Part shown: piece by piece, positions 25,030 through 32,072 of the stretch | Position numbering within the stretch: the stretch's first letter is position 1 | How the letters are laid out: every line of letters begins with the position of its first letter | IMG/VR virus record: IMGVR_UViG_3300021958_000024 | Source of the DNA: a virus | Lineage: Duplodnaviria; Caudoviricetes | Length of the DNA stretch: 64,000 nt | Strand: one strand, 5' to 3' | The notes under the pieces: model-generated | What the model was told of the DNA's origin: nothing | What the model saw: the letters and a program-made list of their open reading frames with translations, nothing else | Databases searched by the model: none | Made by a program: the position numbers and the translations under genes

Positions 25030-25485
25030 TTATTTATAGGGGTTTAGTTCGTCTTCTGTTATAATCTTAAACTCTACCATATGGTCTTCGCACCATTCCC
25101 TAGCAGCTTTCCATTTTGCAATATTTTTAGTATACATCATAACTTCATTAATGAAAGTTTTCTTTTGCTTTCCTTTTGTCTGCTTTGGTTCTATGGTTTG
25201 TTTTTTCGGTTTAACTTCTACAACGTATTTTTTAATATTGCCACTATTTTCTTTAATCTTTACAATAAAGTCAGGAAAATATCTACGGACTTTTTTTGTC
25301 GTAGGATCAAAGTAAGGAATAAAAAATTCTTCACTACCCCATTCCATTATCTTCTCGTTTAGATCACAGTACCTCATGAACTTAAGTTCCCAAGAAGATC
25401 TGTAAACTATGTTACTTGGGTTTCCTTTATATTTTTCTGGATGCTTAGGATGAAACTTTCCCTGATGATATTTACTTTCTCGCAT
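25030..25485 (-). CDS. gp4: Head completion nuclease gp4
   Basis: KYKG.P..I.YRSSWE, RRYFPDF, EVKP, KW.AA. Confidence 0.92.
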   Translation of the reverse strand: MRESKYHQGKFHPKHPEKYKGNPSNIVYRSSWELKFMRYCDLNEKIMEWGSEEFFIPYFDPTTKKVRRYFPDFIVKIKENSGNIKKYVVEVKPKKQTIEPKQTKGKQKKTFINEVMMYTKNIAKWKAAREWCEDHMVEFKIITEDELNPYK

Positions 25486-25517: not shown

Positions 25518-26378
25518 ATGTCTGCTGTACCCCCAAAGAGTTATAGTATAAGTGACTTTAAATCTAGGGCATTAAATCTTGCACAGACCTCGTTATACCA
25601 ACTTACCATAGTTCCTCCACCAAGAATATTTCAACAAACTGAGAATATTAGTTTGCTGTGCCATGAAGCAACTTTGCCTGGTTCATCATTAGCGACTCAT
25701 CAAGTAACTAATGACCATCATGGTGTTACTGAGAAGATGGCATATAGAAGAATGTATGATGAATCATTTAACCTAACATTTTATGTTGATCATCAATATA
25801 ATGTAGTTGATTTTTTTGAAAAGTGGATTGAGTTTGTTGTTGGACAAGGATACACTCAATCACGAAATGCTTATAGAGAAGATACTGCATTTTATAGGAT
25901 GACATATCCTGTAGACTATAAGCAAACAATCTATATAAGTAAGTTTGAAAAGGATTACTTTAGACCAACCAAAGCACCATTAGATCCAAAAAAACGTGGT
26001 GGATCTAACTTAGAATATGAACTTATTGGAGCTTTTCCTTATAATATAGTTTCTATGCCAGTATCATATAATCAAAGTGATATTTTAAAGTGTTCTGTTG
26101 GTTTTTATTTCACACGTTATGTTGTTGAGAAGAAAGGAACAGTTACTTACGGATCACCTGGATTTGCAAACTCAGGAAATCCCACTGCTCAAAGAACTCC
26201 TCCAACTACTTCTCAACAACCAATAAATGCTTTTGATTATAGTAAAATGACTGGATTTAAATTCGATAACTATTATAATAACTTTGGTGTTGATGCTCAA
26301 GATAATACTAACTTTGGAAACTTCTTTAATGGTAGAAGAGTTGATCAAGGAGTATTTGGAGCAGAAGCACAAGCATAA
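25518..26378 (+). CDS. Tail tube / tail tube initiator (gp19/gp54-like)
   Basis: C..A.LPG.SL.T, LTFYVD, FFE.W, AFP..I...PVSY. Confidence 0.75.
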   Translation: MSAVPPKSYSISDFKSRALNLAQTSLYQLTIVPPPRIFQQTENISLLCHEATLPGSSLATHQVTNDHHGVTEKMAYRRMYDESFNLTFYVDHQYNVVDFFEKWIEFVVGQGYTQSRNAYREDTAFYRMTYPVDYKQTIYISKFEKDYFRPTKAPLDPKKRGGSNLEYELIGAFPYNIVSMPVSYNQSDILKCSVGFYFTRYVVEKKGTVTYGSPGFANSGNPTAQRTPPTTSQQPINAFDYSKMTGFKFDNYYNNFGVDAQDNTNFGNFFNGRRVDQGVFGAEAQA

Positions 26379-26411: not shown

Positions 26412-27128
26412 ATGCCGTTACCAAAAATTGCAACGCCAACTTATGAACTTGAGTTGCTATCTACAGGAAAAACTGTTAAGTATAGACCTTTCTTGGTAAA
26501 AGAAGAAAAAGTCCTTCTTATTGCTATGGAAAGTGAAGATGTTAAACAGATTACTAATGCACTAAAGCAAGTATTGAAGTCTTGCATCTTAACGAGAGGT
26601 ATTAAAGTTGAAGAACTTCCTACTTTTGATATTGAATATTTGTTTTTAAACATTAGAGGGAAGTCTGTTGGTGAAGAGATTGAAGTAAATCTGATCGCTC
26701 CAGACGACGGAGAAACCTCAGTGTCTGTAACTATAAATGTAGAAGACATTGGTATTGAAAGATCAGAAAATCATGAAAAAACTATCAAACTGGATTCAAA
26801 TCTACGAATGGAGATGAAATATCCATCTCTAGATGAGTTTATTAAAAACAACTTTGATTTTCAAGAGCAAACCTTAGAGCAGTCATTTGATCTTATTGCT
26901 GGTTGTGTAGATAAGATTTATAATGAAGAAGAAGTTTGGTCTTCTGCTGACTGCACTAAAAAAGACATTATTGAGTTCTTGGGTCAAATGAATAGTATTC
27001 AGTTTAAGGCAGTTGATGAGTTTTTCAATACTATGCCAAAACTTTCTCATAAGGTAACTTTTACAAATCCAAATACTGGGGTTGAGAATGTTGTCAAGTT
27101 GGAGGGACTAGCAAGTTTTTTCGGTTAG
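26412..27128 (+). CDS. gp26: Baseplate hub assembly protein gp26
   Basis: MPLPKI.TP.YEL, YRPFLVKEEK.LL.A, FDIEYLFL.IR.KSVGE, LEGL.SFF. Confidence 0.92.
   Translation: MPLPKIATPTYELELLSTGKTVKYRPFLVKEEKVLLIAMESEDVKQITNALKQVLKSCILTRGIKVEELPTFDIEYLFLNIRGKSVGEEIEVNLIAPDDGETSVSVTINVEDIGIERSENHEKTIKLDSNLRMEMKYPSLDEFIKNNFDFQEQTLEQSFDLIAGCVDKIYNEEEVWSSADCTKKDIIEFLGQMNSIQFKAVDEFFNTMPKLSHKVTFTNPNTGVENVVKLEGLASFFG
27101..27122 (+). promoter_or_regulatory. Candidate -1 ribosomal frameshift signal
   Basis: GGAGGG 27101-27106, then T TTT TTC 27116-27122 in the gp26 frame; -1 frame is open into gp51. Confidence 0.6.
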
Positions 27129-27130
27129 GA

Positions 27131-27304
27131 ATGGTTTACATGGATTTAGAAAACTACTTTCAAGTTAGCTTTTCTATGATTCAGTACCATAAATATTCAT
27201 TAACGGAATATGAAAACTTAATGCCTTGGGAAAGAGATATTTACGTTGGAATGTTGATTAATCATTTAGAGGAAGAAAAACTAAAACAACAACAGTCCAC
27301 ATGA
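27131..27304 (+). CDS. gp51: Baseplate hub assembly catalyst gp51-like (57 aa), not in ORF track
   Basis: MVYMDLENYFQVSFSMIQYHKYSLTEYENLMPWERDIYVGMLINHLEEEK: HKYSLTE.EN.MPWER.IY motif. Confidence 0.85.
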   Translation: MVYMDLENYFQVSFSMIQYHKYSLTEYENLMPWERDIYVGMLINHLEEEKLKQQQST

Positions 27305-29205
27305 AGAAAGAAGAAGAACAAAAACTAGATTCTCTTTTAGATAGCATAAGATCCGAAAATAGTGGGTCGAAGAATGTTGTTGTAAAAAAGATTGATCCAA
27401 AAAAACTTTTACCAGATGCTTCCAAAAAAACTACTGGCGATCAAAACTCTGATGATAAGGCGCTTAAGTCCATACAAAAAGAGTTAGTTGAGATAAAAAA
27501 AAGTGTTAATGCTATAGTAGAAGCTTTTAAAAAGCAAAATCAACTTGCTAGATCTTCAATGGAGAGACAAAGGCAAGCAAAAAATACTAAAAGAAAAAAG
27601 GATAGAGAATCGTCTTTAGAATCTAAATCTAATGCAAAACGTGAAGGTGGTAAAATAGAAAAAGCAATATCACCCTTTGCAGAGTTTTTTGAAAAAATAA
27701 TGAACTTTTTCAAGTTCATTCTTCTTGGGGGATTTCTTAAAGGACTTCTTAATATTATAAAAAATCCTAAAATATTATTAAAACCATTACAAAATATTAT
27801 TAATAGTATTGTTGGATTTTTTAATGGTATTATTAAATGGATTGATGATAATGTTATTGGTCCAATAAGAACTCTTATTGATTATATAAATGGCGGAATA
27901 AAAAATGTAGTTAATACTATTAATGATATTATTAAAGCATTACCAAGTTGGTTGCCAAAACCAGACCCAATAGATAATCCGCCAACAATACCACAGATAC
28001 CAAATCTTCCCCAGATACCTGAAGCGACTTTTGCTAATGATCCAGTAAAGACTATACCAGTAGTTGCTCAGTTTGAAGAAGGTGGTGAAGTACAAAATAT
28101 CAATAATTATAACAACGCCAATAACGTCACTAATAGTACAAACAATGTCACTAATAGTACAAACAATGTCACTAATAACACTATTAAGGCTGGATCGACT
28201 GTTCTTCCGAGAAATAGATCTGTCAATGTTAATGACTTGTCATTTGCAAAAGGTGGTCAAATCGAAAATGATACTGGACTTACGATTAGTGGTCTGGGTA
28301 AAGACACTCAGTTGATTGCTGCTCAACCTGGAGAGGTTGTTATTAATGCTAAAGCAGCTGAAAACTTTGGCGTTGATAAGTTATTGACAATCAACGCCAA
28401 ATATGGTGGACCAGTAGCAAACAAACCTAGAGATGTTGCTTCCAATAAGATCAAAGCAATGGCAAGTGGTGGTTATGCTGGTGGAAAGATTAAATACTTT
28501 AGTGTTAATGGTGGAGGAAATAAACTTTTAAACCCTGGTCAAACTTATACTTATTCTGATTTGAGAATGCATCATAGTGGTCCAACTACTAGAAGAACAG
28601 ATGGATATCCAAAAGACTATACACTATTACATGGAACTGATTTATCATCAGCACCTAATGCAGATATTCCAGTACCACTAGATTCTGAAGTTATATTTAA
28701 AGATAAATCTGGGGGATATGGAAGCACTGTAGTTGTCAAGAATGCCACAGGAAATATGCTTTTTGCCCACCTTAGTAGAATGGGCAACTTTGGGGTGGGG
28801 GATAAAATAAAAGCAGGAACTATCATCGGTACTCAAGGAAGTACTGGTGGAAACTATGCTGACCATTTACATATGGATGCAGAACCTGCAGGACATGAAG
28901 CATTTGTTAACTACATTACTTCAGGAAAACCAACGTTCGGATCAACATCTGCAGCAGGCAAATCTTCATCGGGAGAGATTGAGACTGAAATGAGTAGATC
29001 TGGAAGTCTTCAGATTCCATCTGCAGAAAATGTTGATAGTGGAATGAATTTTCTTAGATCTCTTGGACCTATGTCTGGTCAGATGAAATCTGGTGGAAGT
29101 GTAGCAAATACACCGAACCAGAAACCTGTTCCATCATTTAGTTCTATTGATCCTGCTAATCCATCTTTGTTGGTCGTAAAATCTATCTATAATCTTGTAG
29201 GATAA
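27301..29205 (+). CDS. Baseplate hub / tape-measure-like protein with M23 peptidase domain
   Basis: Coiled-coil and amphipathic N-half, PGEVVIN module, GGYG...AHLS...G.TG....HLH M23 motifs. Confidence 0.7.
   Translation: MKKEEEQKLDSLLDSIRSENSGSKNVVVKKIDPKKLLPDASKKTTGDQNSDDKALKSIQKELVEIKKSVNAIVEAFKKQNQLARSSMERQRQAKNTKRKKDRESSLESKSNAKREGGKIEKAISPFAEFFEKIMNFFKFILLGGFLKGLLNIIKNPKILLKPLQNIINSIVGFFNGIIKWIDDNVIGPIRTLIDYINGGIKNVVNTINDIIKALPSWLPKPDPIDNPPTIPQIPNLPQIPEATFANDPVKTIPVVAQFEEGGEVQNINNYNNANNVTNSTNNVTNSTNNVTNNTIKAGSTVLPRNRSVNVNDLSFAKGGQIENDTGLTISGLGKDTQLIAAQPGEVVINAKAAENFGVDKLLTINAKYGGPVANKPRDVASNKIKAMASGGYAGGKIKYFSVNGGGNKLLNPGQTYTYSDLRMHHSGPTTRRTDGYPKDYTLLHGTDLSSAPNADIPVPLDSEVIFKDKSGGYGSTVVVKNATGNMLFAHLSRMGNFGVGDKIKAGTIIGTQGSTGGNYADHLHMDAEPAGHEAFVNYITSGKPTFGSTSAAGKSSSGEIETEMSRSGSLQIPSAENVDSGMNFLRSLGPMSGQMKSGGSVANTPNQKPVPSFSSIDPANPSLLVVKSIYNLVG
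28120..28179 (+). repeat. 21-nt tandem repeat (NNVTNST x ~3)
   Basis: aacaatgtcactaatagtaca units. Confidence 0.85.
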
Positions 29206-32072
29206 TGGCATTACCACAAATACTAGGAGTAGCAGCAAGATTATTAGCAAAAGAGGGGGCGAAAGGTCTTACAAAATCTGCTGCCAAAAAAGTAGTTCAA
29301 GGAAAAGCTAAGAACTTGGCAAGAGAGAATGTAAGACAATATGCCAAGAAAAAGTTGAAAGAGAGGATGGTTTCTGGCGGATCAGGACAATCTGTAGGAC
29401 CAAATATCCAAGAGAAAAAAGTATCAACAGCAAAACTGTTAAACATACCCAAACCTAAAGCACCAAAACTAGGGAAAGGATCTACTGGTAAATCAAAATA
29501 TTCTCCAATATTAAAAGAGTTATCTTCAATAAATCAAGCACTAAAATCACTGCAATCTACTTTAAAAAACTCTCAGAATATTGCAAAAAAAGAAGAAACT
29601 AATAGAAGAATACAACAATCCAGACAAAGATATTCGGATAGGGAATCTTCATTAGAAGATAAAGATTCTGGTAGCGAAAAATCTGAAAAGGAAGAAGAAC
29701 AACAATCTCTTGGATTTTTTGATATAATCAAAAGATTTTTTGGAAATATTTTAGCTGGTGGATTATTAAAGCTACTTCTTAATAACAAGGACAAGATATT
29801 TAAAGGTATCAACCTCGGCATTAAAAACTGGAGGCATATAACCAGATTTTTGCTGGGACCAGAACTTAGAAAACCTTTATCTAAACTATTAAAGTTTACT
29901 GCAAAGTCTTTATTAAATCCTTTTTACCTTCCAGGCAAAATACTTAAAGGTAGTATAAAACTATTAGGTAAAGGTATAAAACTAACCTTTAAGGGAATAG
30001 CGGGTGCAATAAATCTTGCTATAAAATCTGCATTAAAGGTTGCTAAAGGCATTATAGCGTCGATTAAAGCTGGTGCTAAACTTGGAGGAAAATCACTTAG
30101 GTTGGGTGTTAAAGGTGCTCAAGCAGCAGCTAGATTTGGTAGATCTGCTCTAAGATTTGGTAATAGAGCAGCTAAAGCATTTACTGGTGCTTTGAAGGGT
30201 GGACAAGGATTGAAAGGAGCAACTCAGGCAGTTGGAACTGCCTCTCAAAGATCTGCTCGTCAATCTGCTGCAATAAGGGCACAAGCACAAAAGGCAAAGG
30301 AAGCAAAACAAGCAGCGGAAAAAGCAAAGAAAGCGAAAGAAGCAGCAGATAAAGCAAAGAAAGCAAAAGAAGCAGCGGAAAAAGCAAAGAAAGCGAAAGA
30401 AGCGGCAGCTGCAGCACAAAAGGCAAAAGCAGCATCTAGTGCAGCAACAACTGCTGGAACTGTTGCTAAAGCAGCTAGAAGATCTATAAGAATACCTATT
30501 ATTGGTCCACTTCTAGTTGCACTTGACTCTTGGTTAAGTGGAGATCCACCAAGTCAAACATTGTTCAAAGCTGGTGGCGCTGCTATTGGTGGATTACTTG
30601 GAAACTTTATTCCCATTCCTATTTTAGGAATGATGCTTGGTGAATATATTGGTGAGTATGTTGGTAATCTATTTTATTATGGTATCAAAACTCCAGGTGG
30701 TTGGAAAAAGGCGGGTGAGATTTTATTTGATGATTTAAAGAAGGCATTTAATACTGGTAAACAAGTTCTAGATTGGTTGGGTAAAGGTGTTACCCGTTAT
30801 GTAACTAACTGGCCAAAACTAAGAATCCCAAATCCAGCTATTCCTGGTCCATTAAGAGCGGCATTAGAAGCAGCTACATTATGGAGATCTGGTAAGTTTG
30901 AAGGGATGCATGATTTCTTAGGTAAGTTTCCTTTAAGTCCGTTTAAGTTTATTTCTGATAATCAGTGGTTTGGAAACAAGAAAGGTAAGTTCTCACATAT
31001 TCCAGATCCTTCATTTATGGTTAGAGATCCTGTGGCATTTCTTAAGCATGTTAAAAACTCATTTATGGGAACTTCTAACGAAAAACCAAACTATACACCA
31101 CCACCATTAGGTGATATGAAACTTCCTGGTGATGGAAGTGCAACTCAACCATCGGGAAGTGATGGCAATACACCAAATCCAGCTGCAGGTTTAGATACAA
31201 GACTTAGTGTTGGTACTGGGGAGTTTGGTGAAGGACCACTTATTAAAGCAGCAACTGCTACTGGAATCAAAGGAAAAGAACTTGCTGCTTTCTTAGCACA
31301 AATGTCTCATGAAACTGGAGGTTTTCAGTTCCCTAGAGAGTTGAGTGGAGGAGCATCGCATTATGGTGGTGGTGGTCCTTGGACAGCGCCTAATGGAAAA
31401 ACTTATAAAGCAAAGTTCCATGGTAGAGGTTATGTTCAACTAACACATGACTACAACTATGAAAAATATGGAAAAATGTTTGGTGTTGACTTGCTAAGCA
31501 ATCCAGATCTTGCAATGGATGGTGAACTTGCTGCTAAGATCGCAGTTGCTTATTGGAAGTCAACTGTCAGACCTGTAGTAAATGGTAACTGGGATAATGT
31601 ATTTTTACATTCAAAAGCGATCAACTATCCTGCTGCGACTAGAGAAGATCAAGTTAATGGGATGGAAGATAGAAAAGCAAAATATAGAAAATACGTCGAA
31701 AAGTTAAATGCTGGTAAGATAACAACACCTGAAGCAACTCCTAAATCACCTACAGTTCCTTCGCCAGAGCAACAAGATAATGAAACTGAAAACCCTCGCA
31801 GAGCAACTGATAAACTAAATCAATCTACTTCATCTGCGTTAAGTATGTCTTCTCCTTCGCAAAAAATGGATACTAGCGTATTGAGTCAAAAAGCATCTTA
31901 TGAACAAAAACGTGGTGGAATGACTGTACTACCTCTTCCTATGGGAAATGGCGGTGGAGATTCTTTTGGTGGAGGATCTTCAGTTTTACCATTACCTCCA
32001 GGATCTACATCTAAGATGTTAAATAGTTATTATAAAAGTCAACTCTTAGGCAACTTGTATAAAAACGGATAA
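29205..32072 (+). CDS. Tape-measure/hub-like protein with GH19 (chitinase/lysozyme-like) domain
   Basis: Basic Ala/Lys-rich helices; AAFLAQMSHETGGF...HGRGYVQLT..YNY...G. Confidence 0.75.
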   Translation: MALPQILGVAARLLAKEGAKGLTKSAAKKVVQGKAKNLARENVRQYAKKKLKERMVSGGSGQSVGPNIQEKKVSTAKLLNIPKPKAPKLGKGSTGKSKYSPILKELSSINQALKSLQSTLKNSQNIAKKEETNRRIQQSRQRYSDRESSLEDKDSGSEKSEKEEEQQSLGFFDIIKRFFGNILAGGLLKLLLNNKDKIFKGINLGIKNWRHITRFLLGPELRKPLSKLLKFTAKSLLNPFYLPGKILKGSIKLLGKGIKLTFKGIAGAINLAIKSALKVAKGIIASIKAGAKLGGKSLRLGVKGAQAAARFGRSALRFGNRAAKAFTGALKGGQGLKGATQAVGTASQRSARQSAAIRAQAQKAKEAKQAAEKAKKAKEAADKAKKAKEAAEKAKKAKEAAAAAQKAKAASSAATTAGTVAKAARRSIRIPIIGPLLVALDSWLSGDPPSQTLFKAGGAAIGGLLGNFIPIPILGMMLGEYIGEYVGNLFYYGIKTPGGWKKAGEILFDDLKKAFNTGKQVLDWLGKGVTRYVTNWPKLRIPNPAIPGPLRAALEAATLWRSGKFEGMHDFLGKFPLSPFKFISDNQWFGNKKGKFSHIPDPSFMVRDPVAFLKHVKNSFMGTSNEKPNYTPPPLGDMKLPGDGSATQPSGSDGNTPNPAAGLDTRLSVGTGEFGEGPLIKAATATGIKGKELAAFLAQMSHETGGFQFPRELSGGASHYGGGGPWTAPNGKTYKAKFHGRGYVQLTHDYNYEKYGKMFGVDLLSNPDLAMDGELAAKIAVAYWKSTVRPVVNGNWDNVFLHSKAINYPAATREDQVNGMEDRKAKYRKYVEKLNAGKITTPEATPKSPTVPSPEQQDNETENPRRATDKLNQSTSSALSMSSPSQKMDTSVLSQKASYEQKRGGMTVLPLPMGNGGGDSFGGGSSVLPLPPGSTSKMLNSYYKSQLLGNLYKNG
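30294..30413 (+). repeat. 30-nt tandem repeat (AKKAKEAAEK x 4)
   Basis: gcaaagaaagcgaaagaagcagcggaaaaa-like units. Confidence 0.85.

Follow-up and report, generated by a model that had tools for sequence, protein, structure and literature searches.

A candidate programmed -1 ribosomal frameshift joining gp26 and gp51 in T4-like phages

Introduction

Programmed -1 ribosomal frameshifting takes place at slippery heptamers, such as the G GGA AAG sequence of phage lambda. In the dnaX gene of Escherichia coli, a Shine-Dalgarno (SD)-like element is located ~10 nucleotides (nt) upstream of the heptamer. A -1 frameshift is conserved in the tail assembly chaperone genes of phages, including lambda gpG/gpGT, a finding that is credited to Xu, Hendrix and Duda (2004) in the passages of two later papers that refer to it (PMC3091744, PMC8785237). 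In phage P2, the E/E+E′ pair shifts at TTTTTTG near the end of the first open reading frame (ORF), and no downstream hairpin was found there (PMC3091744). This report concerns a candidate shift of the same kind at the junction of genes gp26 and gp51 in a 64,000-nt stretch of viral DNA, referred to in full as the window. The window is part of a 90.7-kb IMG/VR virus record (IMGVR_UViG_3300021958_000024) with a completeness estimate of 47%, and its closest named relatives are the T4-like cyanophages, at ~70% nucleotide identity.

In T4, gp26 and gp51 are listed as “hub assembly chaperones” (Leiman et al. 2010, Table 2, PMC3004832), and gp51 is needed for assembly and absent from particles (PMC3004832). 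Sullivan et al. (2010) reported that the gp51 of cyanophages is ~20% of the T4 length and that it is “missing” in Aeh1; no frameshift explanation was offered (PMC3037559). The comparative evidence presented here supports a frameshift of the lambda G/GT or P2 E/E+E′ type in the T4 superfamily, and the probability of a gp26-gp51 fusion arising through -1 ribosomal frameshifting is put at roughly 0.8.

The gp26-gp51 junction

All features described here are on the plus strand unless stated otherwise. The gp26 ORF (26412-27128) encodes a zero-frame product of 238 amino acids (aa) that is a member of the T4 gp26/gp51 family, PF12322 (T4_baseplate). The match (E 4.2e-70) covers profile positions 2-218 of 219, and the protein also matches phrog_150 (E 2e-75). 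Its coding sequence (CDS) ends with GCA AGT TTT TTC GGT TAG, so that T TTT TTC (27116-27122), the proposed site of the -1 shift, stands in X XXY YYZ register with the gp26 frame. The zero-frame stop, TAG (27126-27128), is only one sense codon beyond the heptamer. If the sequence is read in the -1 frame, TTT TTT CGG TTA GGA ATG, there is no stop from 27116 into a 57-codon ORF that extends to 27304.

The predicted fusion consists of 26412-27122 joined to 27122-27304, with a junction of ...LEGLASFF/RLGMVYMDL. Its -1 portion (27122-27304, including the stop) comprises an Arg-Leu-Gly linker followed by the gp51 C-domain. As usually annotated, gp51 is a short ORF of 57 aa (27131-27304) that matches phrog_634, “baseplate hub assembly catalyst” (E 1.4e-24). 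The shift was first suggested by a sequence-only reading of the window, which gave the gp26 ending, the position of the heptamer, a stop-free passage into the gp51-like ORF, and a fusion of 297 aa. All sequence details of the gp26 ending were correct on re-reading, and translation bore out both the open frame and the length of the fusion.

Conservation of the slippery site

Two sets of relatives were compared with the window: a codon alignment of 81 gp26 genes sharing 64-72% protein identity, and 80 marine loci in which gp26 is ~45-50% identical to that of the window. The compared sequences are related, and the counts that follow are not independent. Columns of Met and Trp apart, the only codons with an invariant third base among the 81 genes are the three of the heptamer. 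The two Phe codons are TTT in 81/81 and TTC in 81/81, respectively, while TTT and TTC are mixed at 11 other conserved Phe columns of gp26. The column that precedes them, typically Ser, is AGT in 41 genes, TCT in 37, GGT in two, and GCT in one, all of which end in T. In the second set, gp26 often ends in Ser-Phe-Leu, encoded as TTT TTA or TTT TTG, with the T run unchanged.

The sequence-only reading had proposed a check on whether T TTT TTN, and the -1 relationship, are conserved at gp26/gp51 junctions elsewhere. Both held in 163 of 163 non-redundant junctions, as TTTTTTC (106), TTTTTTA (46), TTTTTTT (7), or TTTTTTG (4), always in register with gp26. The codon ahead of the T run is NNT in every case, and the run is exactly six Ts long in 156 junctions and seldom longer. 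The zero-frame stop follows one codon past the heptamer in 155 junctions and immediately (zero codons) in the other eight, and the -1 frame is open from the heptamer into the gp51 domain in all of them. The same layout is found in named phages of Synechococcus and other hosts, including S-PM2, S-N03, S-CRM01, Pelagibacter phage HTVC008M, Caulobacter phage Cr30, Stenotrophomonas phage DLP6, Aeromonas phages AS-szw and phiWae14, Vibrio phage nt-1, Xanthomonas phage X1, Paraglaciecola phage GD1, Acidovorax phage ACP17, and Agrobacterium phage OLIVR5. The motif is kept down to ~25% gp26 identity and across several virus families. Single-protein locus searches with the gp26 of HTVC008M, Cr30, and nt-1 retrieved few relatives. 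Taken together, the alignments indicate that the heptamer is under selection at synonymous sites.

The gp51 domain and its start codons

A start codon for the gp51 domain is lacking in about half of the lineages. In 82 of the 163 junctions, no ATG appears in the -1 ORF until codon 14 or later, inside the conserved domain; the first ATG lies no more than eight codons from the slip site in the other 81, the window included. Among annotated genomes, no gp51 is recorded in AS-szw and ACP17, and the gene is truncated at an internal ATG in HTVC008M, phiWae14, X1, OLIVR5, and Kuja. The conserved N-terminal part of the domain in those records is unannotated sequence directly past gp26. When the start-less -1 ORFs of AS-szw, HTVC008M, and phiWae14 were scanned, the phrog_634 match began at residue 2, at the slip site.

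The spacing across the junction is also conserved. Of 164 junctions, 158 place a conserved P[WYF]E motif at a distance of 36 residues from the junction Phe-Phe. At the next gene junction, which served as a control, the distance ranges from -23 to +183 nt and all three frames are used. In the window, a free 57-aa gp51 may also be made, by reinitiation at the ATG at 27131.

Relationship to T4 genes 26 and 51

T4 gp51 (249 aa) carries PF12322 over residues 2-200 (E 5e-54) together with a phrog_634 match at its C-terminus, and T4 gp26 (208 aa) carries PF12322 only. The two proteins are paralogous (BLASTP E 1e-5, 20% identity), and their genes are divergently transcribed. Profile comparison identified the short gp51 as a homologue of the C-terminal ~50 residues of T4 gp51; a direct BLASTP comparison of the two was not significant, and profiles were needed to detect the homology.

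A hidden Markov model (HMM) of the fusion product was built from 164 predicted fusions. This model aligned residues 16-246 of T4 gp51 in one collinear piece across the junction (E 4e-12), and its alignment to T4 gp26 ended at the junction. The predicted fusion is thus collinear with T4 gp51, and these phages would have an orthologue with both parts on one chain only if the frameshift occurs.

The number of PF12322 genes per genome differs in parallel. A single gene is present in the complete genomes of S-PM2, HTVC008M, AS-szw, Cr30, nt-1, DLP6, and S-CRM01, all of which have the slip site, as well as in Vibrio phage K369, which has a CTT TTC variant, and in the window's own, partial record. 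Two genes are present in T4 and two in KPV15, one of the latter being split. The Phe-Phe pair is kept in T4, KPV15, and CC31 but is encoded there by TTC TTT or TTC TTC, neither of which is slippery. Homologues with TTC TTC, which the sequence-only reading had named as evidence against a shift, turned up in no group other than the T-even phages, which have gene 51 as a full-length gene of its own, and the pattern therefore favours the frameshift.

Proteins resembling the predicted product also occur in a single frame. Singleton ORFs of 295-357 aa from ENA metagenomes (P0007, P0008, P0011, P0012, and P0025) contain PF12322 and PF28602 in one frame, with junctions (...SFFR...) identical to that of the predicted frameshift product. 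Either homopolymer errors in sequencing or rare constitutive fusions may account for these ORFs. An AlphaFold2 (AF2) model of P0012 (301 aa; predicted local distance difference test [pLDDT] 92.8) has one helix across the junction followed by a three-helix C-domain.

A separate observation concerns KPV15, a Klebsiella phage of the T-even type (KY000080.1), in which gene 51 is annotated as two CDSs of 107 and 120 aa (L091:668-1425, minus strand). The PF12322 match is broken at profile positions 126/134. A sequencing frameshift could account for the break, as could a genuinely split gene or a further recoding event.

Candidate stimulatory elements

An SD-like GGAGGG (27101-27106) is a candidate upstream stimulator. 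The sequence-only reading had placed it 9 nt before the heptamer, a spacing that proved correct, and GAGG is enriched there at a synonymous site. Specifically, GAGG is found 10 nt ahead of the heptamer in 127 of 163 junctions, and of the 153 junctions with Glu five codons before TTT, 126 (82%) use GAG, versus 28% GAG elsewhere in gp26.

Downstream of the heptamer, a local RNA stem-loop (27131-27190) begins 8 nt past the slip site and is a possible weak stimulator, although no defined structure is conserved there. Folding of 27123-27200 in the window gave a minimum free energy of -15.8 kcal/mol (z -2.2). Downstream windows of the junctions fold better than same-locus controls (-15.2 vs -11.6 kcal/mol), although the sequences are related and the comparison is not independent. 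RNAalifold, applied to 77 junctions, returned only a 4-bp hairpin. A recurring 5-bp hairpin (27133-27146 in the window) is seen in the cyanophage clade only, and not in the second marine clade; its position 18/29 covaries (GC 25, AT 21, GT 18). In the window, this hairpin is weak and built mostly of G-U pairs, and the second in-frame AUG of gp51 sits at its centre, within a CAUAUG loop. Its effect might be to mask this AUG and not to stimulate slippage.

Proposed mechanism

In the proposed mechanism, the Phe codons UUU (27117-27119) and UUC (27120-27122) would occupy the ribosomal P and A sites, respectively. A fraction of ribosomes would slip back one base, and both tRNA-Phe molecules would re-pair on UUU UUU (27116-27121). 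Translation would then continue in the -1 frame through CGG UUA GGA and the entire gp51 ORF to the stop at 27302-27304, yielding the gp26-gp51 protein. Ribosomes that do not slip would add Gly and terminate at UAG, yielding gp26. By this scheme, the fusion would be the counterpart of full-length T4 gp51, and gp26 that of T4 gp26. The upstream GGAGGG, and perhaps the weak downstream RNA structure as well, would tune the ratio of the two products.

By analogy with known systems and from the predicted fold, the chaperone-like part shared by both products would hold on to the tape-measure-like protein, whose gene lies directly downstream. Recruitment of that protein to the hub or tube initiator, during assembly of the baseplate hub, would fall to the C-terminal extension.

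Gene context and predicted fold

The gp26/gp51 pair lies between tube-like and tape-measure-like genes, in the order tube-like, gp26, gp51, tape-measure-like. This placement had been proposed from the letters alone and is borne out by PHROG and Pfam matches of the neighbours. On the upstream side, gp26 is adjoined by a tail-tube-like gene (gp54-like baseplate tail tube initiator; 25518-26378) that matches phrog_45, tail tube (E 3e-41), and PF23849, Phage_TTP_2 (E 5e-13). The syntenic gene is labelled gp54 or tail tube initiator in nt-1, HTVC008M, AS-szw, and OLIVR5. On the downstream side is a gene for a tape-measure-like protein of 634 aa (27301-29205) with a PF01551 match (E 3e-14) and several weak matches to tape-measure PHROGs; the syntenic gene is labelled tail tape measure in Cr30 and HTVC008M.

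The predicted structure of gp26 bears on the function of the pair. An AF2 model of the window's protein (mean pLDDT 94) is laid out as an N-terminal domain resembling tail assembly chaperones (TACs; ~residues 1-88) plus a second domain. An exhaustive VIA structural search of 48,161 chains placed TACs or chaperone-like proteins at ranks 1-4, all aligned to residues 1 to ~90. These were 2OB9 (HK97 TAC; Z 7.7, 83 residues aligned), 3FGX (Z 7.7), and 3KLU (YqbN; Z 7.4), the latter two of which we take to be TACs, and 5IR0 (PLE1; Z 5.2), which has been identified as a TAC (PMC12987554). The next, unrelated structural match scored Z 4.1. The N-terminal domain of gp26 is thus predicted to fold like HK97-type TACs. 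This predicted fold and the synteny back the analogy to the lambda G/GT chaperones that the sequence-only reading had drawn, and they support a G/GT-like function without proving it. Whether the gp26/fusion pair works as chaperones of the tape measure is, in our estimation, evenly balanced.

Other features of the neighbourhood are of interest in their own right. The 634-aa tape-measure-like protein contains an M23 peptidase domain at residues 444-528. Next to it is a gene for a 955-aa protein (29205-32072) with a GH19 chitinase or lysozyme-like domain at residues 684-788, and the tail-hub module therefore has two distinct cell-wall hydrolase domains, M23 and GH19. Further upstream, on the minus strand, is a gp4-like head completion protein (25030-25485; phrog_218), which also matches PF08722, a TnsA-like endonuclease N-terminal domain (E 3e-22).

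Alternative explanations

Several observations weigh against a frameshift or against a chaperone role for its products. In E. coli, U UUU UUC is not known as one of the most efficient slip sites. The window is AT-rich and contains 33 copies of TTTTTTC, with 32.7 expected, and since the heptamer alone is not above chance, its significance rests solely on comparative data. RNA folding of the junctions did not reveal a strong conserved downstream stimulator, and no Rfam family matched at the junction. The gp51 ATG of the window (27131) is 2 nt past the gp26 stop, which makes reinitiation possible. Two phages, Vibrio phage K369 and Kuja (Ackermannviridae), have CTT TTC or CTT TTT (Leu-Phe) in place of the canonical heptamer. 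Their gp51-like domain is again in the -1 frame; Kuja has no start codon nearby, and in K369 an ATG overlaps the stop. With CTT TTY, perfect re-pairing is possible for the A-site tRNA only, and these sequences may be degenerate slip sites at which re-pairing in the A site alone is used. As for the fold, the best chaperone match (Z 7.7) is below the tool's caution line of 8, Foldseek found no PDB entry similar to the gp26 model at E <= 0.001, and a profile search of PDB sequences gave noise only.

If there were no recoding at all, gp51 would be made solely as a free 57-aa protein by termination-reinitiation at 27131, and the T run would be kept for its Phe-Phe pair and as U-rich help for initiation. 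This reading gains from the nearby ATG in the window and in about half of the junctions, from conservation of Phe-Phe as protein even in T4, and from K369, which lacks the canonical heptamer yet has an ATG that overlaps the stop. It does not account for the half of lineages in which no start codon precedes the conserved domain. Moreover, T-even phages retain Phe-Phe with TTC TTT or TTC TTC, and the T run is therefore not demanded by the protein; the preceding codon ends in T whatever residue it encodes; Phe is exchanged for Leu while the six Ts stay; and T4 gp51 unites both parts in a single chain that is collinear with the predicted fusion. We consider this explanation unlikely. A role for the T run purely as an initiation enhancer was rejected on the basis of the start-less lineages and of conservation at the nucleotide level. 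The run was also considered as a terminator, and this was rejected since no terminator-like site is present there.

Slippage of RNA polymerase on the six Ts would place an extra U in some mRNAs and produce the same fusion without ribosomal slippage. One added U does yield an identical junction, and the singleton in-frame metagenome ORFs fit such a process, although they could stem from cDNA-like or error-prone reads. Known bacterial sites of transcriptional slippage need ~8-9 or more identical bases, however, and the run is shorter, being held at six Ts in 156 of 163 junctions. It is always in X XXY YYZ register, which is relevant to re-pairing of tRNAs and not to a polymerase, and the enrichment of SD-like GAGG points to the ribosome. 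In addition, an IMG/VR scan for a seven-T version, which covered the GAGGG and AGT context and not TCT-type junctions, gave nine stretches, none of them a gp26 locus. Polymerase slippage is thus judged slightly less probable still than the absence of recoding. The least credible alternative, to which almost no weight is given, is that the heptamer is functionless and reflects coincidence of codon usage and shared ancestry. Its chance-level frequency in the window and the relatedness of the compared sequences would be in keeping with this, but neighbouring synonymous sites all vary freely, the motif persists to ~25% gp26 identity in several virus families, and its loss coincides exactly with the presence of gene 51 as a full-length gene in its own right. 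A chance origin was rejected on the invariance of the codon columns, the 163 junctions, the collinearity with T4 gp51, and the PF12322 gene counts. Ribosomal frameshifting at T TTT TTC is accordingly the reading preferred here.

Significance

A -1 frameshift in tail chaperone genes is well known, and its presence in the T4 superfamily appears to be new. A full-text search of one literature library found no report proposing a gp26-gp51 frameshift. Likewise, the sequence-only reading had suggested that the shift is not standard annotation, and a joined gp26-gp51 CDS was annotated in none of the 20 GenBank/RefSeq records inspected. Each of the 20 either lacks gp51, has it in truncated form, or shows it as separate from gp26, and the same is probably true of many related records that share the junction. 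Ribosomal frameshifting would account for the “gp51” of cyanophages and marine vibriophages being about one fifth of the T4 length. It may also explain why gp51 was reported missing in Aeh1 (PMC3037559), a phage outside the present comparison.

The interpretation of T4 genes 26 and 51 as a duplicated replacement of the frameshift also appears to be new. In its fullest form, this model holds that gp26/gp51 is a true homologue of the lambda G/GT-type chaperones, that the ancestor of the T4 superfamily frameshifted, that the T-even phages replaced the shift by gene duplication, and that T4 gp26 and gp51 are chaperones of gp29; we give it even odds. The model assigns T4 gp26 and gp51 a concrete role that can be tested, that of a short/long chaperone pair for the tape measure. 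If it is true, then the two T4 proteins, whose roles have been unclear since the 1970s, are chaperones of the tape measure gp29, and the one long-tailed phage group considered to be without the conserved chaperone frameshift would possess it after all. The gp26-gp51 shift itself would extend the conserved tail-chaperone frameshift to the T4 superfamily, which is among the most abundant virus groups of the ocean, and the T-even phages would offer a natural example of gene duplication replacing a frameshift.

Comparison with known systems

The locus shares features with each of four described systems. The SD-like GAGG, located 10 nt upstream of the heptamer and enriched at a synonymous site, resembles the upstream element of E. 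coli dnaX. In contrast, the heptamer of dnaX is A AAA AAG and a strong hairpin follows it; no strong conserved hairpin is seen here.

The P2 E/E+E′ genes are likewise a pair of myovirus tail genes between tube and tape-measure genes, with a -1 shift at a T6N sequence. The P2 heptamer itself, TTTTTTG, is present in four of the 163 junctions described above. The P2 proteins are smaller (E, 91 aa; E+E′, 142 aa) than the 238-aa gp26, which has an extra domain, and no sequence similarity was detected between the P2 pair and gp26/gp51. The P2 shift is established in the literature (PMC3091744), whereas that of gp26-gp51 is inferred from sequence.

With lambda G/GT, the locus has in common a gene order of tube-like gene, chaperone, -1 extension, and tape measure, as well as two predicted products with a common N-terminus. 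The heptamer is different in lambda, and the extension here is only ~60 residues long, with the zero-frame stop 0-1 codons past the slip site.

Finally, T4 belongs to the same family, as the window's gp26 and both T4 proteins match PF12322. In T4, the short and long forms are encoded by two divergently transcribed, paralogous genes with no slippery run, whereas in the window one gene plus a -1 extension would yield both forms.

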